From: a virus
DNA: 64,000 nt
Strand: one strand, 5' to 3'
Virus record (IMG/VR): IMGVR_UViG_3300032753_000007
Coordinates: 1 to 64,000 of that record
A program made the translations under genes and the position numbers. The notes beneath the pieces were generated by a model. The model was not told where the DNA came from and ran no database searches. It worked only from the letters and a program-made list of their open reading frames with translations. Positions 24,084 to 39,259 of the stretch are shown in pieces (the first letter of the stretch is position 1; each line of letters starts with the position of its first letter).

Positions 24084-24089
24084 TAAATA

Positions 24090-24132: not shown

Positions 24133-24169
24133 TAGCTTTACTCGTTTCTTTAGTACCTTAGGAGGTAAC

Positions 24170-24580
24170 TTGAATAAGAAACAAATCATTGAAACGCTAA
24201 AAGCGTTTCACGCCGAAACAAAAGTGTCAAGAGTAGAAATGCTCATTGGCGCTGGATCGGCGCTTTGTTTGTATGGTCTTAGGGAAGAGACCAGTGATAT
24301 TGACGGGGCTTTACCCCGTCACTGGTTTGAGAAATTCGTGAGGGAAGGGAAGCCTACTCACGAATTTAAAATTCATGGCACCAGCGTGCCAGTGTGTGAA
24401 TGGTCAGAGGTAATTGACCTGCACATCCTGGCTGCAGGAGCCTTAAATAAAACTAGTTGGGTTGAGGGCATTCAGGTGGAAACACTTGAGGGCATCTTGG
24501 CCCACAAAGAATCTATGAAACGTTCTAAGGATCAAGAGGACATTCGCAGAATCAAAGAGCGCCTAGGCATTAAGTCCTAG
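24170..24580 (+). CDS. Small Pol-beta superfamily nucleotidyltransferase (AbiEii/DUF6036-like)
   Basis: 'GAGSALCLYGLREETSDID' (GS...DxD) and C-terminal 'K...RSKDQED'; TTG start after AGGAGG. Confidence 0.75.
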   Translation: MNKKQIIETLKAFHAETKVSRVEMLIGAGSALCLYGLREETSDIDGALPRHWFEKFVREGKPTHEFKIHGTSVPVCEWSEVIDLHILAAGALNKTSWVEGIQVETLEGILAHKESMKRSKDQEDIRRIKERLGIKS

Positions 24581-24619
24581 GCTTTATTAACCTCTTAAAA
24601 GGAGGACTCTATACTACCT

Positions 24620-24715
24620 ATGAAGGTAGTAGGCCTGCTCATTACCTTTATAGGTATCTGGGCAGCAACAGGATTATTGGGCATCCTGTTGTTTATAGCA
24701 ACATTGCCCCAATAG
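24620..24715 (+). CDS. 31-aa hydrophobic membrane peptide
   Basis: GGAGG at 24601; MKVVGLLITFIGIWAATGLLGILLFIATLPQ*. Confidence 0.55.
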   Translation: MKVVGLLITFIGIWAATGLLGILLFIATLPQ

Positions 24716-24751
24716 GCACCATGACATGGATGTCGTGGATTTATTAATCAT

Positions 24752-24772
24752 TTCCACGATGAGTGGAAGGAG
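24752..24772 (+). promoter_or_regulatory. GAUGA-pentaloop hairpin abutting SD, copy 1
   Basis: ttccac-GATGA-gtggaa-ggag, ATG at 24779. Confidence 0.8.
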
Positions 24773-24778
24773 ATTCAG

Positions 24779-25153
24779 ATGAATCTTGTAAGGCGTACAA
24801 ACTTGGACAATGCTGTAAGGGGCATGTGTCCAAGACCTGTTCAGGATGAAGGGGTCTTTTTAGCTATGGATGGCATCAATGATTTACGTATACTGGGACA
24901 AAATCCCGTGTACGTAAAGTACGCCAACCTAGACCACCTACTTAAAGTAGGAAAGGTTTGGGTTGGCAAAGCTGGGGTAGATCCTGAATGGATGGAAATA
25001 AGATCTGTTAAGGATCTACCAAAATTTGCAGTATACGTCATCGAAGACTACGATGCGTGCGCTGCAAAAATCGATGCGGCACCTTACATGCCGCAGTTCT
25101 TCTTTACTCCTACCAATTTTAGAGGTAGGAAAACACTAAAAAGAATCCGCTGA
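24779..25153 (+). CDS. Hypothetical early protein
   Basis: 124-aa ORF with AAGGAG RBS; GC-richer, hairpin-dense CDS. Confidence 0.7.
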   Translation: MNLVRRTNLDNAVRGMCPRPVQDEGVFLAMDGINDLRILGQNPVYVKYANLDHLLKVGKVWVGKAGVDPEWMEIRSVKDLPKFAVYVIEDYDACAAKIDAAPYMPQFFFTPTNFRGRKTLKRIR

Positions 25154-25166
25154 TGAAGCGGAAGGA
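25146..25166 (+). promoter_or_regulatory. GAUGA-pentaloop hairpin abutting SD, copy 2
   Basis: tccgct-GATGA-agcgga-agga, ATG at 25173. Confidence 0.8.
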
Positions 25167-25172
25167 TGTAGT

Positions 25173-25330
25173 ATGAAAAAAAAAGATTATGGAGTCTTTT
25201 GGTCAGGGTGGAACAACACCCTGATCGGTATCCATCAGGATACCACGCCCGTGTAATGCGGGCGTTGGAATTACGCAGGAAGCGTGATTCCAAAATTTGG
25301 CTATGGAGAGCCAAAGCTGCTGAAGAGTAA
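25173..25330 (+). other. Small ORF interrupted at an A9 run (27 aa in frame; 52-aa Arg-rich peptide after a -1 slip), or a structured ncRNA
   Basis: ATG-A9-G. Frame 0 stops at 25256; the -1 frame is open to TAA at 25330, just before the terminator. Six consecutive hairpins cover the region. Confidence 0.45.
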
Positions 25331-25339
25331 AACTCTTTT

Positions 25340-25392
25340 ACTATAGACTGATCTATTAATAGATCAGTCTATAGTCAGCAGTATTTTTTTTT
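25340..25392 (+). terminator. Intrinsic terminator of cassette 1
   Basis: actatagactgatcta-ttaa-tagatcagtctatagt followed by cagcagta and T9. Confidence 0.85.
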
Positions 25393-25396
25393 GTAT

Positions 25397-25435
25397 TTAA
25401 AAAATATTTAATACATACATTATTTAAATGAAATA
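25397..25435 (+). promoter_or_regulatory. Weaker copy of the early promoter motif
   Basis: TATTTAATACATACATTATTTAAATGA keeps the spacing of the TTT..ATAT..ATAT.....ATGA consensus. Confidence 0.4.
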
Positions 25436-25468
25436 ACATCATTAATAACTATTGAGGGTAAAAAATGA

Positions 25469-25690
25469 ATGAGGCTTAAGTTTATATGTGGTAGAATTGC
25501 TTTACATATGTGCGATGAAAGAATATGTATATATATTGGCTGGTGTACTGGCTTTTATATATTAAATAAAAGAGGAAATTATATAATCCAAGGAAGGATA
25601 TGGCATGGAGATTTCTTTCCTGTCTATGTAGATTTTAGTTTTTACGATTATTATCGAGAATACTGCTTTTTTCGTTTTCTTGAAAAATAA
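25469..25690 (+). CDS. Hypothetical protein (aromatic-rich)
   Basis: 73-aa ORF with GAGGG RBS. Confidence 0.5.
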   Translation: MRLKFICGRIALHMCDERICIYIGWCTGFYILNKRGNYIIQGRIWHGDFFPVYVDFSFYDYYREYCFFRFLEK

Positions 25691-25713
25691 CATTTTTATG
25701 AAAGGAGTAATAA

Positions 25714-26415
25714 ATGAGCGATACATTTTCAGCAGGCACATTTTCACCAGCATTACCGATTAATGCTGTTAGTGAATTTGAAATTAAATTACTACAATTA
25801 TTTGGTATTGAAGTAAAGATTAACAATGATAGCATTACTGATGCTTTTTACTTTTATGTACCAGATGGGTTTAAATCCTTGTATCTAGACGACATTAATA
25901 TTGAATATTGCTGTAGCAATCTAGTAAACAACTATGCTAACTTAAATGATCCTTTAGCATTACGTTTGCTAGAAACAGCAAATAAGCTAAAACATAAAGG
26001 ACATACGATAGCTTCAATTATTTCTGCATTTAGTAATTGGACAGCTATTTTTCAAAAAATACTAAATAAGCCACCTTGTAAAGATATAGACTACATTAGT
26101 TGTAGTGGCAGCTACTGGTCTAATAAGTATTTACCTGATGAATTTGGTGGCATATATTACGTTATCACAAAAACAGGGTATCAGGAAATATATGGAAGAG
26201 AGGTTATTGATGAGTTACTAGAAAGAGAACAAAGAAAGAAAGATTTAATTACTGTAGTTACTTTCATGGAAAAATTATCCATAGTAGATAAAGAGTTAGA
26301 CAACACATTGTATCGATTAAAAGAACACATAGGCGATTGCTGTGAATTTTCCGACGGCTATTCAATAGAAGAGTTACCAGGTCTTTTTCAACCAACTGAG
26401 GAATTAAATGTTTAA
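25714..26415 (+). CDS. Hypothetical protein
   Basis: 233 aa, AAGGAG RBS; motif 'DEFGGIYYVIT'. Confidence 0.65.
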   Translation: MSDTFSAGTFSPALPINAVSEFEIKLLQLFGIEVKINNDSITDAFYFYVPDGFKSLYLDDINIEYCCSNLVNNYANLNDPLALRLLETANKLKHKGHTIASIISAFSNWTAIFQKILNKPPCKDIDYISCSGSYWSNKYLPDEFGGIYYVITKTGYQEIYGREVIDELLEREQRKKDLITVVTFMEKLSIVDKELDNTLYRLKEHIGDCCEFSDGYSIEELPGLFQPTEELNV

Positions 26416-27136
26416 ATTATATATTAAAGATATTGATCTTATAGTTTATGCGGATAGATTAAGTACTATCCTAAATGTAGTTGAACTAGCACGAGTACAT
26501 ACCGACGTTACAGCTACGTCAATTGAAAGGGTAGAAAAACTGCCATACTTTAATACGGTTATTAAATATACCACACCTGGCAGACTCGACAATTACATAA
26601 ATATATTTAATGAGTTATGCAAAACGCATACTTTGTTTATAATGGCTGTAGTTAAAGATGGCGTATACAATGATGCGCTCTATTACGCAGATAAAGAAAA
26701 AAGCAATTCTATACCGGATAAAGATGCTGAAGATGCTTTATACGAAACACTTAAAAAACTAGATGATTTACAAAAAGCAGTAATTGAAACGTTTTACTAC
26801 ATAGGTAAAAAGGAAACAAACGCCGTAGATGGTATATTTCATATTTTTGAAAAAATAGAAAATTTGAAAACCACAATAAAATTGATAAAAGAATGTGGAT
26901 CTGATAACTTGGTAAGACTAGATCCTTTAAATGAATCTGAAAATCAAAATAAATGCACTAAAGATAATAATAGATGGAATCGGGCTGCGCCGACATCATT
27001 AGGTAGTTATTTAGCTAGGTGCTCATGCAATATCCCAAGAGACTTTATTTCAATAGATGAGCAGCGTTTAAATCAGATAATTGCCAAAGCAGTTTCTGAG
27101 TCTATTCGGGTATTACAACCGTATAAACGTAATTAA
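26408..27136 (+). CDS. Hypothetical protein
   Basis: 242 aa, GAGGA RBS, overlaps the upstream stop. Confidence 0.65.
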   Translation: MFKLYIKDIDLIVYADRLSTILNVVELARVHTDVTATSIERVEKLPYFNTVIKYTTPGRLDNYINIFNELCKTHTLFIMAVVKDGVYNDALYYADKEKSNSIPDKDAEDALYETLKKLDDLQKAVIETFYYIGKKETNAVDGIFHIFEKIENLKTTIKLIKECGSDNLVRLDPLNESENQNKCTKDNNRWNRAAPTSLGSYLARCSCNIPRDFISIDEQRLNQIIAKAVSESIRVLQPYKRN

Positions 27137-27161
27137 TCTAATTTAGTACTTTATCTTTTAC

Positions 27162-27191
27162 CATACACATGCATTTAAATGCATGTGTATG
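27162..27191. repeat. Perfect intergenic palindrome
   Basis: catacacatgcat-ttaa-atgcatgtgtatg, no U-tract. Confidence 0.7.
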
Positions 27192-27221
27192 AACTTACCC
27201 TTACCACAATAGGAAAAAACA

Positions 27222-27917
27222 ATGGCTGCTAAAAAATCTACTAAAACCGAATATAACTTTGATGAAAAAAATGAAATAAAACCAACATTTAATGATCTAA
27301 TGAATAATTGGAATAATTATTTATATCATCAATATCATGCACATAATGCTTATAGGCAGCAGCAAGAGCCCGTCACCCCATTAACTGCAAGCGTACAAAA
27401 TTCACCTTGGTATACACCAAATCACCCACAAGCATTTTATAGCATTAATGTGCCATTTGGCAACGTTACTATTAAAGATGTTATTGCTGGCATAACCTTT
27501 AAAGTTAACTCAATTGATGAGCGCATAGTTTTAAATACGCAGTTTCCTGAAAATAGCATTATCTATAAGATACTGTACTATTCACCACGATCACTCATTG
27601 ATAAGGGATGGAAAACAGGGGATATTAATTATATATCAGATAGCGATATAGTTAAGTGCTTCAAAAAACTAGAAACTGAAGCTATAGTAAATGTAGAAAA
27701 TTGGATATATGAATGTGAAGAATATGGTAAGCTTATAAGTCATTTTTACTATTGTGTAAAAAGAGAATACGCAAAAAGATATTTAAATGACATAGTATTG
27801 CCACATGCCTTTGAGTTTGAATTGCAGTATCCAATAATCAAAGAATATGTAGCAAAGTGCCTAACACTATACATGGATGAATACTTTGATAAGTTAAAAG
27901 ATTCTGTAAAAGAATAA
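27222..27917 (+). CDS. Hypothetical protein
   Basis: 231 aa, AGGA RBS. Confidence 0.65.
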   Translation: MAAKKSTKTEYNFDEKNEIKPTFNDLMNNWNNYLYHQYHAHNAYRQQQEPVTPLTASVQNSPWYTPNHPQAFYSINVPFGNVTIKDVIAGITFKVNSIDERIVLNTQFPENSIIYKILYYSPRSLIDKGWKTGDINYISDSDIVKCFKKLETEAIVNVENWIYECEEYGKLISHFYYCVKREYAKRYLNDIVLPHAFEFELQYPIIKEYVAKCLTLYMDEYFDKLKDSVKE

Positions 27918-27982
27918 TCATTAATACTGTTGTATGTAGTAACCTAAATAAACTTTTACCACAATCAATTAAGGAAAAAATA

Positions 27983-29635
27983 ATGAACAATATTGCTAAT
28001 ACACAACCACTGTATATTGTTAAAACTAACTCACTCACAAATCTTTTTGTAGGTCAAGATAGCGTGCAACATGCGCTTGAGGTACATAGAAGGATGTCTT
28101 ATGTTGTCAATGAATTTAGTATTGACATTTATGATTCACTATCTGACCCACGTAAAACCATGCTTTTGGCATCAGAGAAGATTCACAATGACCATATTTT
28201 AGGTGATTCTTTTAACATTTATTGTAGTGAATTAGTTGATCCATTATCAAGAAATAATAAATGTATTTACATATATGTTAAAAAGGATTTAAAAGAAGAT
28301 GATTTAAGTGAGCTGTATAAAATCCATGATAAAAATACCATATATGGGTATATTCATGGCTATGCTAATGCTTTAAAATTAAAAAATGATATATTAAAAG
28401 TATTATCTAATCATGCTAATGATATATCATTAACAAAAAAAATATTATCTAATTTTGCTGAAGAACCAGAAGAATCTATTAAAGTTTTATTAGACGTACC
28501 TCATATTGAATATGATAAAAATGTTTATAATGGGTTAATACCTTTAATTGACTATACAGACGACATTAGTATTATGGATTATGACCTTTATAAAACATAT
28601 AAATATGTTATTTATACTAATGAATATAATCATAAAATATTTGTTCCAGAAAAAGATATAAAAGAGTTTAAAGAATGGTTAGAGTCAAAAACATTAATTG
28701 AGTGTAGAGATGAGATTAACTCTTTAGAGCATAACTTTTGTACTACATATGGTAATAATAAGTATGATAATGCGTTAAAAAAGGATAATATGTCTACTTT
28801 ATATTTACTATCAGGAGAGTTTTTTGGATATGTTCATGGATATGATAATGCAATAAAGGTAAGAAACATTGTAGCAAGCATTTTAAATATAAGTAAAGAC
28901 TTAATCAATGTTACTGAATTTAAATGTGAGGAAAGTGTTAATATTTATAAAGAATCACTAAAAGTATCTGAAAATGGATTAATTGAAGGGCATACATTAC
29001 ATACCTTGATGAAAAAGCATAACTATAGTATCTACACAACTGATAGTATGCGCCCCATAATTATCCCATCAGAAGATGTAGAATGTTTTGATAAGTGGCT
29101 AATGTCAGACTCTAAGTCTGATCGTGGTGCCACACCATCTTTTGCTATAATGGATGAAACTAAAAACAATCTATTAACTAAAAACATTAGAGATAGAGCA
29201 ACTTATGTTGAACGCGGTTTAACATCAATAACTTATACGCAGGTATTTACTGGCTATGTCATTGCTGAATATCATGATGATAATGACGATAACTCTCATG
29301 TAACGCGTATATTAGTAAAAGAAGACGCATTTAGTTGGAATAAAGAACCATCGTCAGAGGAATGCTACATAGTCATTCAAGATCACTATGTTAACGGGAA
29401 TCTTAGCAGCCGAAAAGCAGCAGAGCTTGATGCACGCGATGTGCCTATGTTAGTAGGTTACTTTAGTCTAAAAAAGGCATACCAAGCAGGAATAAAACTG
29501 AATGCAAATGAAGATGTATTTGATAAATCCAATAAAGAAAAAGAACTTGCTGAACTACGTAAAACCATCCATGATATAGAAAGATGGTTAATTGACAGTG
29601 ATATTGAGTTCGTAATTGATGATCTAATTAGTTAA
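27983..29635 (+). CDS. Hypothetical protein with internal duplication
   Basis: 550 aa; repeated 'GY(I/V)HGYxNA(L/I)K...YxIYT...IxxPxxDxxxFxxWLxS'. Confidence 0.65.
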   Translation: MNNIANTQPLYIVKTNSLTNLFVGQDSVQHALEVHRRMSYVVNEFSIDIYDSLSDPRKTMLLASEKIHNDHILGDSFNIYCSELVDPLSRNNKCIYIYVKKDLKEDDLSELYKIHDKNTIYGYIHGYANALKLKNDILKVLSNHANDISLTKKILSNFAEEPEESIKVLLDVPHIEYDKNVYNGLIPLIDYTDDISIMDYDLYKTYKYVIYTNEYNHKIFVPEKDIKEFKEWLESKTLIECRDEINSLEHNFCTTYGNNKYDNALKKDNMSTLYLLSGEFFGYVHGYDNAIKVRNIVASILNISKDLINVTEFKCEESVNIYKESLKVSENGLIEGHTLHTLMKKHNYSIYTTDSMRPIIIPSEDVECFDKWLMSDSKSDRGATPSFAIMDETKNNLLTKNIRDRATYVERGLTSITYTQVFTGYVIAEYHDDNDDNSHVTRILVKEDAFSWNKEPSSEECYIVIQDHYVNGNLSSRKAAELDARDVPMLVGYFSLKKAYQAGIKLNANEDVFDKSNKEKELAELRKTIHDIERWLIDSDIEFVIDDLIS

Positions 29636-29645
29636 ACGACTATAC

Positions 29646-29690
29646 GTACTCTAGACTGGGATATATCCCAGTCTAGAGTACTGTTTTTTT
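29646..29690 (+). terminator. Intrinsic terminator
   Basis: gtactctagactggga-tata-tcccagtctagagtac followed by tgT7. Confidence 0.85.
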
Positions 29691-29732
29691 GGTTAATTAT
29701 ACCCATCATACTATGTCACTTTAGGAGATAGT

Positions 29733-32189
29733 ATGAAAATCTTATCGGTATATTTACGAGGATTTAAACCATTAGCATTACGAAATATCAATGAAATCAC
29801 TATTGATTTTACAGAACAAGTCACTTTAGTATTAGGTAGAAATGGTTGTGGTAAATCATCATTATTAAGAGAATCTACACCATTGCCTGCTGTCATGGAA
29901 GACTATTATGAAAATGGTGAAAAACGAATTACATTAGAGCATAATGGCCATCACTATGAACTAGTAACTGTATTAAAGAAATCAGCTAAACACAGTTTCT
30001 ATAAAAATGGCATTGCTTTATTAGAACACGGCATTACCAGTACACAACAAGCTTTAGTAGAAAGCGAATTAAACTATACTGATTTAATACATAAACTATT
30101 AATTGGTAAACTAACATTTACTACTATGTCAGTTGGTATGCGTCGTGATATATTAACAATGATTTCACCTTTAGATTTAAATTATGCTATTGAATTACAT
30201 AATAAAATTAAAGTACAAATTAGAGATAATCAAGCTATTATAAAACACCTTAATAGTAAACGTGGTGAAATAGAGCATAAGTTAAAAGACCTTAATCAAT
30301 ATAAGTATATTGAAGAGCAAAAAACTAAATTAGAAAATGAACTATCAGTAGTCATGCCATTTGCTTTATTAAAGTCATTACCTAGTCATCAGATACAAAA
30401 AAACATTAATGAAAGTCAACACTCATTAATGAGTTTACATAAACAACTACATAAAGAAGATGGATTATCAGTGCCTACTCGAGGTATTAATAATGTTACT
30501 GACTTAACAACTTACATTGGTCAATGCAATGGTGAATTAAACGCACTACAATCACGTATAAACGATCTTTATACAGAACTTGATGGATTAGTAGGGGTAA
30601 CACAATCGCTCTCTAATAATCATTTATCTACAACTGATATAGAAAGCTATATAGCACAATGTGATGCTATTATTAACGATTTTGTTGCTATGCAAATGCC
30701 TAATGTTGATGGTAATCTATCACTCTATAGTGACCAGTTAATTACACTTTATGATAGTTTTATTTCATTAGATGACATGTTATCTAAAACACATTACTTT
30801 ACAGTAAATGAAATTAAAGACATTAATCATGCTTATAATAAAATAAGTACGTTACAAGCACATGCTATTAATGAATTAGATAGCATAAAAGAAAAAGGTA
30901 ATCATTATAAGAATAATCATAGTGCTATTGAATGTCATCAATGTAAAACTAAATTAACATTAGAAGGGCAATCAGTTGAATTAGTCATTAATGATTTACG
31001 TAATAAAGCAACTGATTTAATTAAACAAATTAAATCATATAAAGAACAATTAGACATACTCACACCACAAGTAGAACATATCCAATTATTTAACCAAGTC
31101 ACTAATAGTCTTATTACATTAAAAAATAACATTACATTACCGAGTTTATTTTGGAATGAATTTACAATAGAGTCAATATTACAATATCCATCACTATTTT
31201 CTACGCATATTGTAAGATGGCAAAAAATAATTGAACAAACAAAAATAAAAAATAAAGCATTAGCTGATAGAGAAACTTATAAAGATGCATTATCAGCTTA
31301 TCAAAAATGTGGTGGTAGTGTTAGTATTCATATTGAAAAACAAAATAAGCTATTAGATCGTTTATTATTAAAACAACAAATTATTAAAAAAGATTTAGTC
31401 ATTTGTCAACATGTATTAAAACAATATATGCATTATACAGAAATGCATGATAAACATATTCAGTTATCAAGCTATATAGACATTCAATATAAATCGTTAA
31501 TTAATGCTTATATAAAAGAAGATGCTGAAGAAAAACGATCTAAGCTTTACCAAACATTATCAGATATTAACAATATCGTTACTAAAAAAGAAACATTAAC
31601 TAATGCACTTAATGAACTCAATAAAGAATACCATGCATTGTGTGGTAATCAAGAATGTTTATTACTATTAGAAAAAGAACTATCACCTAAAACAGGCATT
31701 GTAGCTGAACAAATGTTAGCGTTTATTACTAGTTATGTTGAACAGCTTACTGATATTTGTTCTCAGGTTTTTACTTATGATTTAACTATTAATCCTTGTA
31801 ATATGGATAATGGTAAGTTGGATTATACATTTAGTGTATTAGTAAAAGATGCTTTAGTAAAAGACATAAATATTCTTAGTTCAGGTCAAGCTGAAGTTGT
31901 TAATTTAGCGTTTATGCTAGTGCTTAGACAATATTTAAATCTAATGGATTATCCTTTATATTTAGATGAAATTGGTATTCATTTTGATTCACAGCATCGC
32001 AATAATCTTTCATTGTATATTAAACAAATATTACAAGAAGGTTGTTGTAGTCAGTTGTTTATTATAGAGCACTATACGCATGTACAAAACTTTTTACCTA
32101 ATCATGATACTATTGTGTTAGATGCTACTAACATTACTGTACCCGATAATTATAATCAACATACCACCATTAAAACAGGAGTAGATTAA
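29733..32189 (+). CDS. sbcC: SbcC/Rad50-like SMC ATPase (phiKZ gp165-like)
   Basis: Walker A 'GRNGCGKS', coiled coils, zinc hook 'CHQC', signature 'LSSGQ', Walker B 'LYLDE', H-loop 'IIEH'. Confidence 0.9.
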   Translation: MKILSVYLRGFKPLALRNINEITIDFTEQVTLVLGRNGCGKSSLLRESTPLPAVMEDYYENGEKRITLEHNGHHYELVTVLKKSAKHSFYKNGIALLEHGITSTQQALVESELNYTDLIHKLLIGKLTFTTMSVGMRRDILTMISPLDLNYAIELHNKIKVQIRDNQAIIKHLNSKRGEIEHKLKDLNQYKYIEEQKTKLENELSVVMPFALLKSLPSHQIQKNINESQHSLMSLHKQLHKEDGLSVPTRGINNVTDLTTYIGQCNGELNALQSRINDLYTELDGLVGVTQSLSNNHLSTTDIESYIAQCDAIINDFVAMQMPNVDGNLSLYSDQLITLYDSFISLDDMLSKTHYFTVNEIKDINHAYNKISTLQAHAINELDSIKEKGNHYKNNHSAIECHQCKTKLTLEGQSVELVINDLRNKATDLIKQIKSYKEQLDILTPQVEHIQLFNQVTNSLITLKNNITLPSLFWNEFTIESILQYPSLFSTHIVRWQKIIEQTKIKNKALADRETYKDALSAYQKCGGSVSIHIEKQNKLLDRLLLKQQIIKKDLVICQHVLKQYMHYTEMHDKHIQLSSYIDIQYKSLINAYIKEDAEEKRSKLYQTLSDINNIVTKKETLTNALNELNKEYHALCGNQECLLLLEKELSPKTGIVAEQMLAFITSYVEQLTDICSQVFTYDLTINPCNMDNGKLDYTFSVLVKDALVKDINILSSGQAEVVNLAFMLVLRQYLNLMDYPLYLDEIGIHFDSQHRNNLSLYIKQILQEGCCSQLFIIEHYTHVQNFLPNHDTIVLDATNITVPDNYNQHTTIKTGVD

Positions 32190-33022
32190 TGACACCTAAT
32201 AGTAACTTAGTATCAGTAGGCATTGGTACTGTAGCACAAGATAAAAATGATAATAGTCGGTTTATATCTGTTTATTTATCAGAACAACATCCTTTTTATG
32301 AAGGTGATGTAACGAATGATGTTGCTGAAATAGAAAGAACGGTTATAGATGAACATGGCAATAGTACTAAACTAAATCTCTATAAAACAATGGCTGTTAA
32401 AGCTGATTGGTTAGAAGATGAAAGTAATAGAGAAACAGCACCCCATGTAAAAAAAGGTGAATCCGTTAATGTATTTGAAAAGAAAGATACAAGTGAATAC
32501 TATTGGCAGCCTCGTAAAAAGAATAACCCTACGCGTAGAGCTGAAGCCGTTACGTTTGCATGGAGTGCTGCTAGTCAAAGTAATGACATAGATATTCCTA
32601 AAACAGCAGATAATCATTATAGCGCTACTGTTGATGGTATTAATGGCCATATTACCATTACTACATCGAAAGATAATGGTGAAGTAGCTAAATACACTAT
32701 ACAAGTACAAGGTAAACAAGGACATGTTACTGTAGCAGATGATTTAGGTAATCTGATTCAACTAAACTCATCTACAAAAACAATTACATTATCTAATGGT
32801 GATAATACTTATGTTCAATTATCTGGCCCTAATATACTAGCAAATGCAAATGAAACTATTTTATTAAAAGCAAATAATATTGTATTGGACAGTAGTACCG
32901 TATCTATAACAGGTACAACACAAACTAACAATAACGTTAATGTAACCGGTGATGTTAGTGTAAGCGGTACTACTACAACAAATACAATTAATGCTTCGAC
33001 TTATATAGGGGATAATGATTAA
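32189..33022 (+). CDS. Baseplate central spike/puncturing protein (phiKZ gp164-like)
   Basis: OB-like N-terminus 'TAPHVKKGESV', beta-helical C-terminus 'VNVTGDVSVSGT'; adjacent to SbcC. Confidence 0.7.
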   Translation: MTPNSNLVSVGIGTVAQDKNDNSRFISVYLSEQHPFYEGDVTNDVAEIERTVIDEHGNSTKLNLYKTMAVKADWLEDESNRETAPHVKKGESVNVFEKKDTSEYYWQPRKKNNPTRRAEAVTFAWSAASQSNDIDIPKTADNHYSATVDGINGHITITTSKDNGEVAKYTIQVQGKQGHVTVADDLGNLIQLNSSTKTITLSNGDNTYVQLSGPNILANANETILLKANNIVLDSSTVSITGTTQTNNNVNVTGDVSVSGTTTTNTINASTYIGDND

Positions 33023-33483
33023 TGAGTACTAAAGTGATAGATAAAGAAATAGTAAGCTATAGTATTAAAAAAACAGAAGAGTTGACATTATCTGCTAAGC
33101 CTATTGTTCCTGAAGAACGTCCTGAATTATTAGAAGGCGTTACTTATAAGTTTAAAGCATTAGAGTTTGCTTATTATGTTACTATTAATGACATGGTACT
33201 AGAGAATGAAGATGGTAGTAAAACATATATTCCTTATGAAATATTTTTAAATAGTAAAAATGTAGAACACTATCATTGGATAGTGTGTACGATGCGAATT
33301 ATTTCTTTATACTTTAAAGCTAATGGCGATATAGTTAAATTAATTAGCGAATTAAAAGAAACACACGATGCTAGTGGTGGTTATTTTAAGAAAGGTGGAG
33401 GCAGAATGCCATCTGTTGTAGCTGAGTTAGGGTTTGTATTAGAAAAACACATTAATCGTTTTAAATCTGGAGATAAAAAATGA
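33022..33483 (+). CDS. nrdJb: NrdJb-like/TSCPD-type subunit of a split class II ribonucleotide reductase
   Basis: 'ERPELLEGVTYK...YVTIND...PYEIFLNSKNVEHYHWIV...ELK..HD..GGYFKKGG..MPSVVAELG' closely follows proteobacterial NrdJb. Confidence 0.8.
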   Translation: MSTKVIDKEIVSYSIKKTEELTLSAKPIVPEERPELLEGVTYKFKALEFAYYVTINDMVLENEDGSKTYIPYEIFLNSKNVEHYHWIVCTMRIISLYFKANGDIVKLISELKETHDASGGYFKKGGGRMPSVVAELGFVLEKHINRFKSGDKK

Positions 33484-33866
33484 ACATCAATCAAATCGAT
33501 CAAGTGCCTGTAGCAGTGTTGCCTAGCATATTGCCTTTAATAACTGCTGCTATTAAGTCAGATATGTTCATTAAATTATCTATTATTGATAATGAGTTAG
33601 ATAGCTTTGAATTAAAATCTAAAGAAACAGGAAAATGCCTTTATATGGATCCATTAAAGTTTTTAAATGGTGAAACACATGCAGAAGCTTTAATACCTAC
33701 ACCACGTAATATTCCTGAACATAATCCACATGCCGTATATCAACCAAACATTAATGTAAGAAAGTGGGATACTGAAGGACTAAAAATCAGTGATTATCCA
33801 CCTGGTGCATCGCCCAGTGTATCTACTGTAGCTACTAATAACTTTCCAATATCACGCGCATACTAG
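33480..33866 (+). CDS. Hypothetical protein
   Basis: 128 aa, GGAG RBS, ATGA overlap. Confidence 0.6.
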   Translation: MNINQIDQVPVAVLPSILPLITAAIKSDMFIKLSIIDNELDSFELKSKETGKCLYMDPLKFLNGETHAEALIPTPRNIPEHNPHAVYQPNINVRKWDTEGLKISDYPPGASPSVSTVATNNFPISRAY

Positions 33867-33884
33867 CATAGTAACGCAGTTTAT

Positions 33885-33927
33885 AAATTCAAATAATTTT
33901 AATATAGATATAGTTTACATGAATAAA
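33885..33927 (+). promoter_or_regulatory. Putative early promoter, copy 2
   Basis: AAATTCAAATAATTTTAATATAGATATAGTTTACATGAATAAA. Confidence 0.75.
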
Positions 33928-33970
33928 GAATAATCTTTATTAACGTATCGTTACGTTTTAACGAATTAAA

Positions 33971-33989
33971 TCCCTGATGAAGGGAAGGA
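33971..33989 (+). promoter_or_regulatory. GAUGA-pentaloop hairpin abutting SD, copy 3
   Basis: tccct-GATGA-aggga-agga, ATG at 33996. Confidence 0.8.
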
Positions 33990-33995
33990 AATAAC

Positions 33996-34331
33996 ATGAA
34001 AACTTTATATATCTGTAATGCCTTTTCTCTTCAAATGCTTGCGTTTGAAGAGAACATGATACGGGTAACCCCCGTACCATCTCCAGCCGCATGGTTGGAG
34101 AATGTCGAACCATTGTTCGACATTCTCCACTCTGCCGTCGGCCATGCCGACACAGCTGCTATATTTTCTTCCGTATTAAATATGGAAGTAAAAGAAAACA
34201 GGACTTCAATATCGATGTCGAAAGACATAGAGCTATTGGTGGGCCAGTACAGCGGCCCACGCTTGCCAGAGGGGGCAACAACGCTCCCTCAGGGAGCAAC
34301 AATTAAGTGGTTCCATGTTAAGCTAGTATAA
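33996..34331 (+). CDS. acrIII-1: AcrIII-1 / DUF1874 (STIV B116-like) cyclic tetra-adenylate ring nuclease, anti-type III CRISPR
   Basis: Family motifs occur in order: 'Y..NAFSLQML', 'SAVGHADT' (catalytic GH), 'NR..I', 'Q...PRLPEG..L'; 111 aa. Confidence 0.88.
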   Translation: MKTLYICNAFSLQMLAFEENMIRVTPVPSPAAWLENVEPLFDILHSAVGHADTAAIFSSVLNMEVKENRTSISMSKDIELLVGQYSGPRLPEGATTLPQGATIKWFHVKLV

Positions 34332-34349
34332 GCTAGCTTAACATGGTTA

Positions 34350-34410
34350 GCTAGGCATCAGTGATTAATCACTGATGCCTAGCCACTTTTCTTTTTTCTA
34401 TTTTTTTTTT
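34350..34410 (+). terminator. Intrinsic terminator of cassette 2
   Basis: gctaggcatcagtgat-ta-atcactgatgcctagc followed by T-runs; preceded by a 14-bp hairpin at 34313-34346. Confidence 0.85.
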
Positions 34411-34542
34411 CATTTACATTATATAACTATATTATTACTAAGGTAAATAACATATCTATTAAGTTTAGGAGTATAAATAATGGATACGTTTTCAAAACCT
34501 AATACCAAAGAAATCATATAATGCAGTATATCACAATAAGGA

Positions 34543-35181
34543 ATGAGTATAATGAATTTTAATTCTCAACAAGCAAAAAATAACACAATAATACATAAAC
34601 CATATACGTCTTTGTATTTAAATCAGTTATTAGCAGATAATAAGTTAATACTTAATTCGCGTAGTGAAGAAGTATTCTTCCCGTTAGAGATTGCACCTGC
34701 TAACGCATCAGTTAAAATTCCATGTCTTTATGATAAATCTATTTGTAAAAATAAACCAATATCTTCTAAATGGTTTTATAAAATGGAAGATCTGTTTAAT
34801 GATTTATTAGATGAAGAAAACTGGGATTGGGGTTTACCTTATCCTACATTAAATGCGTTTCAAGCTTTCTTTAACGTGCTGAATGATTTAGACCCACCAC
34901 GTAAACCAACTATTGGCGTTACATCTGATAGTGCGTTAACAATGTATTGGATTAATACAAGAGCTACTGTAGTCATTAAATTAAAAGACATCGATAATAT
35001 AACTATGCGGTTTAAAGTAACTAATGATGATTTAGTAGAGCTAACATCCGATTACATTAATAAAGCAGAATCATTTAAATGGATTTTTGAAATTCATAAT
35101 TTAAATGATGTATTACTGGATATTAAAATAAAGTATAATATTATACCTAATGTTTTTAAAATTGACGGTTTAATTAATTAA
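34543..35181 (+). CDS. Hypothetical protein
   Basis: 212-aa ORF. Confidence 0.6.
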   Translation: MSIMNFNSQQAKNNTIIHKPYTSLYLNQLLADNKLILNSRSEEVFFPLEIAPANASVKIPCLYDKSICKNKPISSKWFYKMEDLFNDLLDEENWDWGLPYPTLNAFQAFFNVLNDLDPPRKPTIGVTSDSALTMYWINTRATVVIKLKDIDNITMRFKVTNDDLVELTSDYINKAESFKWIFEIHNLNDVLLDIKIKYNIIPNVFKIDGLIN

Positions 35182-35193
35182 AGGAAATCAGTT

Positions 35194-35376
35194 ATGTCTA
35201 TTAAAGAAATACTTAAACTATTTGTTTATACATTAACACTATTTATTGCTGTTAATGTTTTGTTTTATATTCAATTAGCAACAGTTGATGCAGAAACACT
35301 TATTATATCAAGTATAGTTTGTGATTTGTATTTTTTAATCGTTTATCTTTATCGAGTGAGATTTCTATGGAAATGA
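35194..35376 (+). CDS. Small membrane protein (2 TM)
   Basis: 60 aa, two hydrophobic segments, AAGGA RBS. Confidence 0.55.
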   Translation: MSIKEILKLFVYTLTLFIAVNVLFYIQLATVDAETLIISSIVCDLYFLIVYLYRVRFLWK

Positions 35377-35492
35377 TTAGGTATGTAAGATTTTGTATGA
35401 TCCCTATAGTAATTGGCATAATCGCATTTTTGATTATTACTTGGGATGGATGGAGTGATGACAATGGCGACGATTACAAGCATGATATATAA
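35373..35492 (+). CDS. 39-aa single-TM peptide with acidic tail
   Basis: ATGA overlap; MIRYVRFCMIPIVIGIIAFLIITWDGWSDDNGDDYKHDI*; fills the gap before DHFR. Confidence 0.5.
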   Translation: MIRYVRFCMIPIVIGIIAFLIITWDGWSDDNGDDYKHDI

Positions 35493-35504
35493 GGAAAACA
35501 GATT

Positions 35505-36335
35505 ATGAAAAAAATAGCATTAGTAATAGCCGCTACTGAAGATCATTTGATTGGATTAGATGGCAAAATACCCTGGCACATTACAAAAGACCTACAGCGA
35601 TTTAAACACGTCACTATGGGCGGTGTCGTTATCATGGGCAATAATACCTGGAAGTCATTAAACTGCAAGCCATTACCAGGTAGAATTAATATTGTTATTA
35701 CACATGAAGATAATCTATTGCCTATACCTGAAGTACCACAAACAGATGTAGCGTATAGATTTATGTTTAATTCAGATACACCTACACCTGAAGCCTTATT
35801 AAACTTACCACAATTTAATGATTATAAACTATTTATTATTGGCGGCGCTAGCCTATATAGTAAATTCTTTAAATACTGTAATGAAATACATTACACTCAT
35901 ATCCATGATATATTAGGTACTGAAATAGATCCTGAACATAAAGGCGTTTATTATGAGTTACCTGAAATACATGAAGATGAATGGACTCAAGCTATTGTAA
36001 GTGACTATACTGATCACTCCTACGAACTCTTTATAAAAGCCAAAACACCTGATACACTTGAAGAAGCGTGGAATAGGTTTTATGATATTTTAATATCTAA
36101 TAAGGATAACTACGATGAGCGTTTTGTAAAGGCCGTTAAAACGACCTATATGAAAGGTGCATTAGATGCATTACAGATTTATTCATTAATGATAATGGAT
36201 GGTAAATGTGATTGTCCATCAACTATAACTGAAAAATTAGTTGGTCCTATCACAGTAACACTGGGTGTCGATAAATTTATTGGGTTATTGACTAAGCTGA
36301 TTATGGAACCAACTGCAGAGAATGAAAATGAGTGA
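35505..36335 (+). CDS. folA: Dihydrofolate reductase with C-terminal extension
   Basis: 'IGLDGKIPWHITKDLQRFK..TMG..VIMGNNTWKSL..KPLPGRINIVIT...IIGGASLY'. Confidence 0.92.
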   Translation: MKKIALVIAATEDHLIGLDGKIPWHITKDLQRFKHVTMGGVVIMGNNTWKSLNCKPLPGRINIVITHEDNLLPIPEVPQTDVAYRFMFNSDTPTPEALLNLPQFNDYKLFIIGGASLYSKFFKYCNEIHYTHIHDILGTEIDPEHKGVYYELPEIHEDEWTQAIVSDYTDHSYELFIKAKTPDTLEEAWNRFYDILISNKDNYDERFVKAVKTTYMKGALDALQIYSLMIMDGKCDCPSTITEKLVGPITVTLGVDKFIGLLTKLIMEPTAENENE

Positions 36336-36383
36336 TGATAAATTACCAAATACTCTTATACCCATTCCAAAGAGAAAAAAATA

Positions 36384-36737
36384 ATGAATGACGATTACTT
36401 TATTTCAAAGAAAGCAAAACTTTTATTTATCTTGTTTAATACATCAGGTAAACTACGAAGAGAATTGTTAGGTGTAACTTATACTACGTATATAACTGTA
36501 GCTTCAGCTAAGCTGTGGTACGATGGTACACTTGCTGTATTAGAGTGTCCAACCACATTAAATGAAAATGAATGCGATAGTGAGGCAATGCTTTCAGCTA
36601 AACTACAATTAGCACGTGTATGTGAGGATGAGGGCGTTTATCATCCTGAAGTCATTTCGTCAGCAAAATCCATATTACGTTGGATTTATAAAGAAGAAAT
36701 TTTAACCTATCATCAATCTTACTTACAAACAAAATAA
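36384..36737 (+). CDS. Hypothetical protein
   Basis: 117-aa ORF in an operon. Confidence 0.6.
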   Translation: MNDDYFISKKAKLLFILFNTSGKLRRELLGVTYTTYITVASAKLWYDGTLAVLECPTTLNENECDSEAMLSAKLQLARVCEDEGVYHPEVISSAKSILRWIYKEEILTYHQSYLQTK

Positions 36738-37009
36738 TGACATTAGTTATTCAAGAAAAATACTTCTCATTTGAAACAGAAACCATTAAAGAAAAAATAG
36801 AACGATTAACAGTACATCGCAATAACCTCATGGAGCAATATGGCAATACTGCTGCAAGTGAACGAGAGAAATGCGTGTTATTAGAATTTGATAAAGATAT
36901 TAAAAGACTCAAAACACAATTGAGTCCTAAAAATGCTGCTAAAGAAAAAATAGAAAAGGAAGAAATTGATAAAAAGAATTGGGGATATTTAGGTAAAGTA
37001 CATGGTTAA
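36737..37009 (+). CDS. Hypothetical protein (helical, charged)
   Basis: 90 aa, TAATG coupling. Confidence 0.6.
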   Translation: MTLVIQEKYFSFETETIKEKIERLTVHRNNLMEQYGNTAASEREKCVLLEFDKDIKRLKTQLSPKNAAKEKIEKEEIDKKNWGYLGKVHG

Positions 37010-37169
37010 AAAAGATATTGTTCTTGGCGGAACAAGATATAATGTTACATATGAGCAAAAAGAAAATGAAATCATAATTCATTCTTTAATTGCTGGTGAT
37101 AAACCCATGTCAGTAAATCTTTGTATGCCTAGCGTATTAGCGTTAATTAAAAAGAAGTTAACAGAATAA
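37002..37169 (+). CDS. 55-aa hypothetical protein (not in ORF track)
   Basis: AGGT RBS; MVKKDIVLGGTRYNVTYEQKENEIIIHSL...KKKLTE*; ends just before a hairpin. Confidence 0.55.
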   Translation: MVKKDIVLGGTRYNVTYEQKENEIIIHSLIAGDKPMSVNLCMPSVLALIKKKLTE

Positions 37170-37177
37170 ACTAACCA

Positions 37178-37209
37178 CTATACTAGATGTCATATGACAT
37201 CTAGTATAG
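37178..37209. repeat. 32-bp perfect palindrome
   Basis: ctatactagatgtca-ta-tgacatctagtatag. Confidence 0.75.
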
Positions 37210-37229
37210 CCTTATTATAGGATAATCAA

Positions 37230-37553
37230 ATGAAATTTATAGATATAATAAATCATTCAGTACCAAAACATAATCTAATTGATGTAGTGCATCATTCTTG
37301 GATAATGTGCTTTGGTCATAAAACATCAAGTAATAATGACTTTTGGTTTCCCTATCAAGGTTATGGCCCAAAAAGAATGCGTATACCTATTAGGTGTTTA
37401 TCTATTGATAATGATTGGACAAAAGTTTATAAGCGTTCAAGAAAACCGTTTTGTGATATAGTCGCAAAACGATATTATAATAAGCCTGTAGCTATATCAG
37501 GTAAGTGGATTAGTAAAAAAGAAAAAGCTAAACCATGGGGCTATATTAGATGA
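37230..37553 (+). CDS. Basic hypothetical protein
   Basis: 107 aa, AGGA RBS, K/R/W-rich. Confidence 0.55.
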   Translation: MKFIDIINHSVPKHNLIDVVHHSWIMCFGHKTSSNNDFWFPYQGYGPKRMRIPIRCLSIDNDWTKVYKRSRKPFCDIVAKRYYNKPVAISGKWISKKEKAKPWGYIR

Positions 37554-37882
37554 GCTATATTAATAATTGGCTATATCACCATTTGCGTGATATTCAGTTT
37601 AATAAGATACTAAAGATTAATAAAAAACGCCCTAGAGTAGAAAAGAGAATGAGGAAAAGAATTAAACCTACTAAAACTAAACTATTTATTAATGTAACCT
37701 ATCGATCTTATCCTCTTATAAGGTGGTATAAAGAGCTATTAAGAGAAGAGATAGATGATATTATTTTTAATAAACAAAGACTATGGATTAAAGATAGTAT
37801 TAGAGAGCGCTATAACTGGTACAGTGGGTTACGTGCTAGAGTGATTGCTTGTAAAAATAAGGATTTTTATAAATTCAAATAA
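37550..37882 (+). CDS. Highly basic hypothetical protein
   Basis: 110 aa; 'KINKKRPRVEKRMRKRIKPTK'; its stop codon lies inside promoter copy 3. Confidence 0.55.
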   Translation: MSYINNWLYHHLRDIQFNKILKINKKRPRVEKRMRKRIKPTKTKLFINVTYRSYPLIRWYKELLREEIDDIIFNKQRLWIKDSIRERYNWYSGLRARVIACKNKDFYKFK

Positions 37883-37913
37883 TTTTCATATATATATAGT
37901 TTATATGAATAAA
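37871..37913 (+). promoter_or_regulatory. Putative early promoter, copy 3
   Basis: AAATTCAAATAATTTTCATATATATATAGTTTATATGAATAAA. Confidence 0.75.
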
Positions 37914-37957
37914 GAATAATCTTTATTTAGTTAACGTTAACTATTAACGCATTCATA

Positions 37958-37978
37958 TGCTGCGATGAGCAGCAAGGA
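37958..37978 (+). promoter_or_regulatory. GAUGA-pentaloop hairpin abutting SD, copy 4
   Basis: tgctgc-GATGA-gcagca-agga, ATG at 37988. Confidence 0.8.
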
Positions 37979-37987
37979 TATACGATC

Positions 37988-38326
37988 ATGAACAAGTTCA
38001 ATAAATTTGCCACTGACTTTTCAACAGGTTTCAAAGTGGGTTATCAAAACCCTCATCGCCTGCCAATGTATTGGGGAATGCTGAAGCTGCATTGGTACGC
38101 AGCTTTTATTAAAGCCTCATATGAGGCTAAACACTCAATTGAAAAACAAAAAGTCCCCCAGTGGGCACTGGGGATCGTGCACCGCGCTTGCGCGGTGCAC
38201 GATAAAAGAATCAACTGGGCTACCAAAAAATTTAATGGAATAGTCTTAGATGGTTGGATGGACTTCGGCTTAGAAGCGCTTAAAGCGCATCTAAGCAGAC
38301 AGATAAGGAGAGCCGAAAGAGGCTAA
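37988..38326 (+). CDS. Hypothetical early protein
   Basis: 112 aa with its own promoter and terminator; hairpin-dense CDS. Confidence 0.7.
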   Translation: MNKFNKFATDFSTGFKVGYQNPHRLPMYWGMLKLHWYAAFIKASYEAKHSIEKQKVPQWALGIVHRACAVHDKRINWATKKFNGIVLDGWMDFGLEALKAHLSRQIRRAERG

Positions 38327-38337
38327 CCTTACGTCGG

Positions 38338-38412
38338 CTTCCAGATTACTTTAAAGTAATCTGGAAGTCAATACTGCTGCAGAGATTAATCTCTGCAGCA
38401 GTATTTTTTTTT
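38338..38412 (+). terminator. Double hairpin terminator of cassette 3 (probably bidirectional)
   Basis: cttccagattact-ttaa-agtaatctggaag, then aatactgctgcagagat-ta-atctctgcagcagtatt plus a T-run; lies between convergent genes. Confidence 0.85.
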
Positions 38413-39259
38413 ATGCTAAATCTTTATTTATTTTTTTGCTTGTTTCTGATTGGGCATAGCCTACTAGCTTTACTTGAAATAATACAATAGAAAACAGTTC
38501 TAATGCTTTAGCACAGTTTAAGATATATTCTCTTAATTGTTCTAATTTAGCTTCAGGTAATTCTTTTAGTATTTGCTCATGCTCTTTACTAGAGGTTAAT
38601 TTAGTAATGTAATCTAATAGTCTTTTTAATCTAGCGGTAATTTCAGCAGTATTTACTTTAGATGCAGTATCAATTAATAAGGTAACTTGTTTAAAGCATT
38701 TCTCATAGCCTTCTACATCACCGTATAAATCAATAAATAAACGATTATGAATACCATTATCAACGGACTGATTAAAATGCTTCATTAACTCATCATTGTG
38801 TTTTTTATAATCTAATGCATGTGGATCTAAGTTAATCCATACTTTATACAATGTTTCAGGTTTACTAATACAAATAGCTAACCATTGCTCTAATGGCTTT
38901 AATAATAAGTTATCTATATTACTCAATGTATCTAATGCTTGATGTAATGTCTCTACATAAGCAGGTAAGTCTTTATCAATATAAGCAGGTGCACAAACTG
39001 TATAGGTTGTTAATGCAGTTCTACCTAATTTATTGATATTATTAACACTCGTTTTAAAACCAGTATTATCTAAAAAGTTTAATCGTAGTGCTTTGTTATT
39101 TAACGAAGCTGATTCATCTGACAATACAGAGGTTACTTTAGTAAAGAAACCTACTGCAAAGTTTTTAACAGAAGCAAAGTCAAAGCCTTCCATAGCGACT
39201 TCAACTAAATCTTCATCTGTATATCCTAGATTTTTTAAAATAGCGTTATTTAAGCTCAT
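38411..39259 (-). CDS. Probable virion head protein (phiKZ gp153-like)
   Basis: Divergent from UvsX; acidic N-terminus ending 'VAMEG', fitting the prohead protease A-x-E motif. Confidence 0.6.
   Translation of the reverse strand: MSLNNAILKNLGYTDEDLVEVAMEGFDFASVKNFAVGFFTKVTSVLSDESASLNNKALRLNFLDNTGFKTSVNNINKLGRTALTTYTVCAPAYIDKDLPAYVETLHQALDTLSNIDNLLLKPLEQWLAICISKPETLYKVWINLDPHALDYKKHNDELMKHFNQSVDNGIHNRLFIDLYGDVEGYEKCFKQVTLLIDTASKVNTAEITARLKRLLDYITKLTSSKEHEQILKELPEAKLEQLREYILNCAKALELFSIVLFQVKLVGYAQSETSKKINKDLA

Follow-up and report, generated by a model that had tools for sequence, protein, structure and literature searches.

RESULTS

R-AUGA hairpins directly precede the Shine-Dalgarno sequences of small phage genes

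A family of six short RNA hairpins, whose stems differ around a nearly fixed pentaloop, was found directly in front of Shine-Dalgarno (SD) sequences in the genome of an uncultured lake jumbo phage, and it is plausible that these elements, here called R-AUGA hairpins, serve as translational operators. The stretch of DNA that was analyzed (the window) comprises positions 1 to 64,000, that is the first 64 kb, of the IMG/VR record IMGVR_UViG_3300032753_000007, a contig of 109,752 nt with 32.7% GC and a completeness of 41%. An 818-amino acid (aa) SbcC-like protein encoded on the contig has matches only in phiKZ-type jumbo phages, at ~25% identity. The initial annotation of the window had described four of the hairpins (hp1–hp4). 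The scan of both strands of the whole 110-kb contig added two further copies beyond the window (hp5 and hp6), for which contig coordinates are given. The six hairpins are:

24752–24768, + strand: hp1, TTCCAC-GATGA-GTGGAA, intercistronic; SD GGAG at 24769–24772; ATG at 24779 of a 124-aa open reading frame (ORF), 24779–25153; covariance score 32.3 bits, stem probability 0.98
25146–25162, + strand: hp2, TCCGCT-GATGA-AGCGGA; AGGA at 25163–25166; ATG at 25173 of a 27-aa ORF; covariance score 32.4 bits, stem probability 0.94
33971–33985, + strand: hp3, TCCCT-GATGA-AGGGA; AGGA at 33986–33989; ATG at 33996; covariance score 32.9 bits
37958–37974, + strand: hp4, TGCTGC-GATGA-GCAGCA; AGGA at 37975–37978; ATG at 37988; covariance score 33.7 bits
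67911, + strand: hp5, GCTGC-GATGA-GCAGC, then AAGGA
91783, + strand: hp6, GCTGC-AATGA-GCAGC, then AGGAG

The loop has the sequence GAUGA in five of the six copies and AAUGA in hp6, and the stems are perfect over 5–6 bp. When the six copies were aligned without gaps, the A-U-G-A of the loop was invariant, and the 5-bp core stem was in each case followed by an invariant A and then by (A)GGA. All copies run into an (A)AGGA(G) sequence with a gap of 0–1 nt between hairpin and SD, and the ATG is located 10–14 nt past the core stem (the stem-to-ATG distances of hp1, hp2, hp3, and hp4 are 10, 10, 10, and 13 nt, respectively). The four window hairpins have the GATGA loop, the SD junction, and the ATG 10–13 nt downstream exactly as had been claimed. 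In strength, the SDs that follow the hairpins are typical of this genome (5 nt, near the genome median). At hp2, the closing U and the loop also contain the stop codon of ORF 24779–25153, as a tandem TGA TGA.

The occurrence of the hairpins was compared with that in shuffled sequences. The + strand of the contig contains seven R-ATGA hairpins with a perfect stem of 5 bp or more, and the − strand has none, versus a mean of 0.95 such hairpins on both strands combined in dinucleotide shuffles (n = 300). Six of the seven adjoin an SD, versus 0.007 expected from the shuffles, which is far from the background frequency and random positions that the initial annotation had named as grounds for giving up the motif. 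A scan that ignored the loop sequence (perfect stem of at least 5 bp, loop of 3–8 nt, SD core within 2 nt, then ATG; both strands) returned the six R-AUGA hairpins and one match at 61973, which is not a gene start, and tolerating a mismatch or a G-U pair only added noise. The stems covary, as had also been proposed: four of the five core pairs are changed on both sides, every core position is paired in all six copies, and the covariation score was reached by none of 500 shuffles. The GCUGC stem is common to hp4, hp5, and hp6, which leaves four independent stems, and no flanking similarity was detected between hp1 or hp2 and the other copies. The six copies, from which the covariance model was built, reach 32–35 bits with it, and the next match in the 110 kb, at 17 bits, is in coding sequence.

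Because all copies are on the coding strand, the stems covary, and the loop is both fixed and non-palindromic, the element most likely acts as RNA. The stems have been turned over fully while the loop stayed, also at hp1 and hp2, whose flanks differ from those of the remaining copies, and this suggests that the loop sequence itself is selected. The tighter constraint on the loop than on the stem argues for sequence-specific recognition.

Folding in the native context with RNAfold gave stem pairing probabilities of 0.81–1.0. The predicted accessibility of the SD was increased by the hairpin only at hp2 (from 0.06–0.18 to 0.77), with no gain at five of the six sites, so there is little in silico support for the fallback suggestion of the initial annotation that the hairpin keeps the SD single-stranded. 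No kissing partner UCAUC is common to the cassettes in which the hairpins lie, and no pseudoknot partner was seen when the sequences were read by eye. No paper describing a GAUGA pentaloop at the ribosome-binding sites of phages was returned by the search of the literature. The Rfam scan of the whole contig gave nothing at the gathering threshold; membership in an Rfam family, including the C/D-box k-turn that is hinted at by the UGAUGA sequence, was rejected, with the best match near hp1 being sR58 at 15.6 bits versus a threshold of 55.

Other structures were observed close to start codons. Immediately after hp1, an AGAUUC-AGAU-GAAUCU hairpin (24770–24785) covers part of the SD and the start-codon G of ORF 24779–25153, and the predicted SD accessibility at this ORF is only 0.2. 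After hp2, the lone 27-aa ORF (25173–25256) is located within a chain of hairpins that reaches the operon terminator (25163–25392), and this stretch may be a structured noncoding RNA, and not a gene. On the minus strand of the contig (84445–84427), a 7-bp perfect hairpin with another loop, ACTACAG-CAATG-CTGTAGT, directly adjoins AGGA and an ATG, which is a single case.

The hairpins are part of cassettes headed by a promoter-like repeat

The genes behind the hairpins are arranged in cassettes, in which an AT-rich promoter-like repeat is followed by a 5′ hairpin, an AU-rich linker that sometimes has an additional small palindrome, the R-AUGA hairpin, the SD, a small gene, and a palindromic terminator. 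Copies of the ~47-nt repeat at 33883, 37869, 67845, and 91715 head the leaders carrying hp3–hp6, and a small operon is headed by a fifth copy, at 24088, which is more diverged. The distance from the repeat to the hairpin is variable. The claim that the hairpins occur only in the cassettes also agrees with the enlarged set, as four copies are in the leaders of the repeat and two, hp1 and hp2, are between the cistrons of the fifth such unit. The other cassette elements in the window are:

24088–24134, + strand: promoter-like repeat, the most diverged copy, heading the unit 24170–25392
25340–25392, + strand: terminator of the 24088 unit, in which a palindrome centered on ATTAAT is enclosed by a CTGCTGA/TCAGCAG stem, then T9
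33883–33929, + strand: promoter-like repeat of cassette 3, of the form ATTCAAA-N5-TTnATATnnATATAG...ATGAATAAAGA
33922–33941, + strand: first leader hairpin of cassette 3, AATAAAGA-ATAA-TCTTTATT, which begins inside the conserved end of the promoter repeat
34350–34395, + strand: terminator of cassette 3, a 15-bp palindrome with central ATTAAT, then a T-rich run
37869–37915, + strand: promoter-like repeat of cassette 4
37908–37927, + strand: first leader hairpin of cassette 4, identical in sequence to that of cassette 3
38370–38414, + strand: terminator of cassette 4, a 16-bp palindrome with central ATTAAT, then T9; it forms the right edge of the cargo swaps described below

The promoter-like repeat finishes in ATGA(A/G)TAAA, which leads straight into the first leader hairpin, and this hairpin is probably located at or near the 5′ end of the transcript. 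The repeat can be read as TTCAAA and TATAGT or TATAAT separated by 15–16 nt. It was not called by a sigma-70 consensus scan, which gives background counts in AT-rich DNA, and its probable reader is a phage polymerase. According to a review (PMC7598289), a conserved AT-rich motif can be recognized in front of the presumed early operons in each jumbo phage that has its own RNA polymerases, and because of this the repeat fits an early promoter, so that by analogy the cassettes would belong to the early class. A second intergenic repeat, ATAT(T/C)ATTACTATGC, was seen at 34431 in the window and at 68383, 68504, and 86648 of the contig; it includes TATG, the phiKZ late-promoter core, and may be another promoter class.

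The cargo genes of the cassettes encode proteins of 111–130 aa. The cargo of cassette 3 (ORF 33996–34331) is a STIV B116-like protein (DUF1874, AcrIII-1 ring-nuclease family; Pfam PF08960, 32.1 bits versus a cut-off of 26), and that of cassette 4 is an ORFan (37988–38326). The remaining cargo proteins gave no Pfam family, and two match PHROGs without an assigned function. The first gene of the 24088 unit (24170–24580) has a TTG start, the SD AGGAGGT, and a 5′ hairpin (24126–24143), without an R-AUGA hairpin. Its product matches phrog_12854 (E = 6e-22), to which no function is assigned there, and a GS...DxD motif resembling that of small nucleotidyltransferases can be recognized in it by eye. 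Further cassette terminators were seen at contig positions 68320–68360 and 92215–92250. The terminators are long perfect palindromes with unrelated stems, with ATTAAT as the center throughout (once TTTAAA) and with a T run after them; a fixed center combined with a free stem is common to the leader hairpins and the terminators.

Cargo is exchanged downstream from the hairpin in lake metagenomes

For the region 24000–38500, contigs of other lake and freshwater metagenomes were compared. Contigs in three runs keep the cassette-4 leader to 37981/37982 and then resume at 38352–38371, in the terminator. The break is located 7–8 nt past the hairpin, inside the spacer between the SD and the AUG, and one variant contig carries on at 37982 with a different ORF. 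Because the leader is kept to 37982 and the cargo is replaced, the cargo has been exchanged while the promoter, leader, hairpin, and SD were retained. Two variant leader alleles have 3–5 changes each (substitutions and insertions) in the linker at 37941–37956, and among the differences listed for the variant-leader contigs none is in 37957–37981, which contains the hairpin and the SD. It is suggestive that the linker varies in the metagenome alleles while the hairpin and the SD seem to stay fixed. One contig of a run that also contains a 7%-divergent strain joins the end of the cassette-4 terminator (38411) to the end of the 24088-unit terminator (25394); both contain CAGCAGTATTTTTTTTT, and the junction may be either a repeat artifact or a product of recombination between cassettes.

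The position of the hairpin, but not its loop, is shared with a distant relative

The DNA polymerase search of viral and metagenome contig collections returned one relative only, with 47% identity, which is the 220-kb IMG/VR contig IMGVR_UViG_3300021142_000002; in Logan/ENA, a contig of roughly 200 kb from a closer relative encodes a 92%-identical homolog of the ORF 34543–35181 product. Repeat analysis of the whole 220-kb contig showed seven homologous promoter copies of the form ATTCAAA-N5-7-TTCATGTATATA, each with a long first hairpin after it. The cassettes of the relative are:

near 190071, 159507, 150017, 140099, 116926, 74793, and 24334, − strand: seven promoter-headed cassettes

In six of the seven leaders, a GC-rich hairpin of 4 bp stands at the end, separated from AGGAG by 1 nt, with the sequences CCUC-AUA-GAGG (three copies), CCUC-UAAA-GAGG (two copies), and CCCU-AUA-AGGG (one copy), the last of which is closely similar to the UCCCU-GAUGA-AGGGA of hp3. 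SD-adjoining hairpins are rare among noncassette genes, where their frequency is ~1/60 in the phage studied here and 4/150 in the relative. The fact that the relative keeps an SD-adjoining hairpin with an AUA or UAAA loop indicates that the hairpin position is conserved across lineages, while the loop is lineage-specific. The 4-bp hairpins of the relative consist of anti-SD and SD-like sequence (CCUC/GAGG or CCCU/AGGG), and its terminator palindromes are centered on CCTAGG.

With the covariance model of the R-AUGA hairpin, scores did not exceed 15 bits in the 220-kb relative or 17.4 bits over five cultured jumbo phages (1.48 Mb in total), so that the expectation of the initial annotation that the motif would be present in related jumbo phages did not hold. 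The R-AUGA motif is confined to one phage lineage and is not a common feature of phiKZ-like jumbo phages. The exact hairpin and SD pattern of hp4–hp6 gave one chance match, inside a GC-rich coding region. Searching viral contigs with the AT-rich promoter pattern gave 115 chance matches, none with the extended motif, and a stricter pattern gave 0; a cross-lineage promoter pattern returned only the lineage of the relative and chance matches. No loci were found in the viral or metagenome contig collections for the AcrIII-1-like cargo and its 212-aa neighbor.

DISCUSSION

The hairpin family is real and slightly larger than first reported. We tentatively favor the possibility that a trans-acting factor reads the R-AUGA hairpin as a translational operator or enhancer common to the cassettes. 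According to this proposal, the hairpins would be RNA elements within the ribosome-binding module of portable accessory-gene cassettes of a phiKZ-like lake jumbo phage. The fixed loop would be recognized by a trans-acting factor, most likely a phage-encoded RNA-binding protein and possibly the 30S platform, and the hairpin would be placed against the SD/anti-SD helix or stacked on it. With the factor bound, 30S loading could then be raised or blocked, and all cassette genes would be translated, or shut off, together, as by a regulon-wide operator. The fact that the helix always adjoins the SD makes translation initiation the likeliest output. The suggestion of the initial annotation that an RNA operator marks a regulon can thus be retained with respect to the action at the RNA level, the single set of genes, and the loop being more tightly kept than the stems, although not with respect to its boxB label.

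Two kinds of T4 translational operators are comparable to the R-AUGA hairpin. In the gp43 operator, too, a short hairpin immediately precedes the SD, in a position from which a bound protein would keep the 30S subunit out, and RegA also uses one signal on several unrelated phage mRNAs. On the other hand, the loop of the gp43 operator has 8 nt, and this operator is a lone autogenous site, while the RegA sites are AU-rich linear sequences at the AUG, without hairpins (reviewed in PMC3014915). The R-AUGA element is, as in T4-type operators, located at or next to the SD or AUG, but the search for a cognate repressor of the RegA family (PF01818) gave a weak negative. In the jumbo phage PhiPA3, the ChmC protein binds phage mRNAs near start codons, with no motif known (PMC11077065).

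Several observations weigh against the operator proposal. The Pfam models for S21, T4 RegA, and CsrA had no match in the contig, which is 41% complete, or in the relative; for RegA this negative is weak, as control genomes gave no match either and both records are incomplete. Family searches with the cargo proteins, and protein-atlas look-ups of two of them, gave no RNA-binding lead. The loop is AUA or UAAA in the relative and AAUGA in one copy of the phage itself, which means that loop identity is lineage-specific and somewhat tolerant, and the 4-bp hairpins of the relative are weak and not always present in the minimum-energy fold. There are only four independent stems, with GCUGC present in three copies, and the cassettes are paralogous. 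There is also no RNA run among the sequencing runs listed, and the promoter start site and the temporal class of the cassettes remain predicted.

It is possible, although on balance doubtful, that the hairpin is a cis-only structural element at the 5′ edge of the ribosome-binding site, the loop of which is bound by no regulator. Such an element could insulate the SD from the strongly folded and variable leader, strengthen a short SD by coaxial stacking on the SD/anti-SD helix, or be an obstacle to 5′-end-dependent RNase E scanning, and its loop would either stabilize the 5-bp stem through a GNRA-like GA(U)GA fold or dock on the 30S platform. This would agree with the position of the hairpin being kept in the distant relative despite another loop, with the gap of 0–1 nt to the SD in every copy, and with the predicted SD accessibility at hp2. 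However, a structural loop should drift faster than paired stems, whereas here the stems were replaced and the loop was kept; moreover, no accessibility is gained at the other five sites, and the AAUGA copy breaks the G-A closing pair of the GNRA-like fold. This reading would also agree with the longest SDs (AGGAGGT, −10.8 kcal/mol, in this phage, and AAGGAGGA in the relative) belonging to the two leaders that lack a hairpin, but the link between SD length and hairpin is drawn from these two leaders. With its 5′ hairpin, the leader is also laid out like the 5′ untranslated region (UTR) of E. coli ompA, which has a 5′-terminal hairpin and a second one just upstream of the ribosome-binding site. 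The ompA hairpins, however, have no conserved loop common to several genes, and the 5′ end of the cassette transcripts is predicted. We consider it improbable, although it is a serious third choice, that the hairpin is an RNA-processing or punctuation signal, the base of which is cut by a hairpin-specific endoribonuclease of the phage or the host, to give an mRNA that starts at the SD and an upstream fragment closed by a protective 3′ hairpin. In favor of such processing, hp1 and hp2 exactly bracket one cistron, with hp1 meeting its SD and the hp2 loop holding its stop codon, and the 230 nt past hp2, a hairpin chain up to the terminator, could be set free as an RNA of its own. The GC-rich 5-bp stem and the pentaloop right before the ribosome-binding site also have the shape of a Cas6f/Csy4 substrate, and cleavage at its base would give context-independent translation. 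The Csy4 hairpin is used as a synthetic 5′-UTR insulator before ribosome-binding sites, and RNase III cuts between T7 early genes. However, the Csy4 loop is GUAUA, and here a CRISPR context is absent and the analysis gave no candidate nuclease. For phiKZ, leader processing or early termination has been invoked to explain 17 candidate small RNAs derived from 5′ UTRs (PMC10914365), and such leader-derived small RNAs would be consistent with processing. On the other hand, removal of the leader would lose the conserved 5′ hairpin, which by its looks is a stabilizer, and the weaker 4-bp hairpins of the relative, with their other loops, would demand a different enzyme specificity.

The boxB reading, in which an arginine-rich N-like protein binds the pentaloop on nascent RNA and lets the polymerase pass terminators, has become very improbable. 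The likeness to lambda and P22 boxB is one of shape alone, as these sites also have a 5-bp stem, a pentaloop of the G-A-N-N-A type, and several copies in phage transcripts. The R-AUGA elements are likewise downstream from a repeated promoter-like motif, and the five GAUGA loops are in principle compatible with a GNRA-like fold in which the third base is flipped out, as in P22 boxB, while the AAUGA copy is without the G. From lambda nutL boxB, hp3 would differ in one loop base and in the outer pair, and lambda N bound at nutL also represses N translation. However, nut sites have no fixed relation to the SD, whereas all six R-AUGA hairpins adjoin an SD and are not tied to the promoter, the distance to which varies, and two of them are intercistronic without a terminator before the next gene. 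No boxA stands close to any copy: CGCTCTTTA-like sequences with at most 1 mismatch were searched for within 120 nt of the hairpins, which gave a single match, 116 nt upstream of hp1, and none at the other five. An N-like protein did not emerge from the contig (41% complete), for which no family model of such proteins was searched. Each cassette has one terminator, at its own end, so that read-through would have no obvious purpose, and the phage, to judge from its jumbo-phage matches, would use phiKZ-type multisubunit polymerases that would not depend on the host Nus machinery. Hence, the classification of the element as a boxB or nut site is not supported, and the boxB label should be dropped. 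It is also quite improbable that the signal acts at the DNA level, either as an R-ATG-A start motif of the non-virion RNA polymerase, in which case the cassettes would carry an early and a late promoter, or as an inverted-repeat recombination site at the left edge of the cargo. The late promoters of phiKZ have little beyond TATG at the start site (core T(-3)ATG(+1)) and are in this respect comparable, and the cargo swaps start 7–8 nt past the hairpin. However, the base before the ATG is A and the one ahead of it is G or A, in place of the required T-A, and selection for pairing with a free stem sequence is foreign to known multisubunit-polymerase promoters and to double-stranded DNA-binding sites. 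Stems of 5–6 bp are also too short for cruciform extrusion, and homologous recombination within the conserved promoter and leader (~110 nt) would account for the swap edges equally well. Finally, the AUG of the loop could be the start of a tiny upstream ORF, with termination at the main AUG coupling its translation to that of the cargo. In the window these ORFs, of 5–8 codons, are:

24759–24782, + strand: ORF from the loop AUG of hp1
25153–25176, + strand: ORF from the loop AUG of hp2
33977–33994, + strand: ORF from the loop AUG of hp3
37965–37991, + strand: ORF from the loop AUG of hp4

We regard this coupling as hardly credible, even though the ORFs of 7–8 codons from hp1, hp2, and hp4 have a UGA that overlaps the main AUG (AUGA), the ORF of hp3 stops 1 nt before the main AUG, and the AUG of hp6 is in frame with the cargo. 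There is no SD before the loop AUG, the ORF of hp5 runs out of frame into the cargo, and the agreement of three of the six in one frame is within chance (about 0.3). Moreover, short ORFs are expected in AT-rich sequence, and the loops of the relative are AUA or UAAA.

As portable units, the cassettes resemble the PeSL cassettes of T4-type phages, which are repeated promoter and stem-loop modules flanking small ORFan genes, the cargo of which is exchanged (Arbiol 2010, PMC2839356; Comeau 2014, PMC4122927). Here as well, five promoter-like repeats and palindromic terminators with T runs are placed around small noncore genes, and the cargo is exchanged. However, the PeSL modules have a sigma-70-like promoter and a terminator stem-loop and have not been described with a conserved-loop hairpin fused to the SD, while the promoter of the present cassettes has no clear sigma-70 match (15–16 nt spacing). 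A broader version of recognition by a dedicated reader, which is speculative and rather unlikely, is that the R-AUGA hairpin would be the address tag of a phage RNA-binding protein or a hairpin-specific endoribonuclease that switches translation, processing, or nuclear export of the cassettes. Any new cargo could then be plugged into the tag by recombination, and tag and reader would co-evolve between lineages (GAUGA versus AUA/UAAA). The cargo set would in this case be exchangeable early anti-defense cassettes, including the AcrIII-1-like ring nuclease.

The operator proposal touches on the question of how translation of the first mRNAs is timed and targeted in jumbo phages. A ribosome-binding protein, gp014, and the start-codon-proximal ChmC are known, and to our knowledge no RNA motif has been tied to either of them. 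The phage is uncultured and the motif is confined to one lineage, which sets the limits of the finding. The hairpin with its SD nevertheless offers a concrete bait of ~26 nt for pull-down experiments, together with a simple set of loop and stem mutants. The conserved part of the cassette that is carried between cargos thus includes, besides a promoter and a terminator, a candidate translation-control element.

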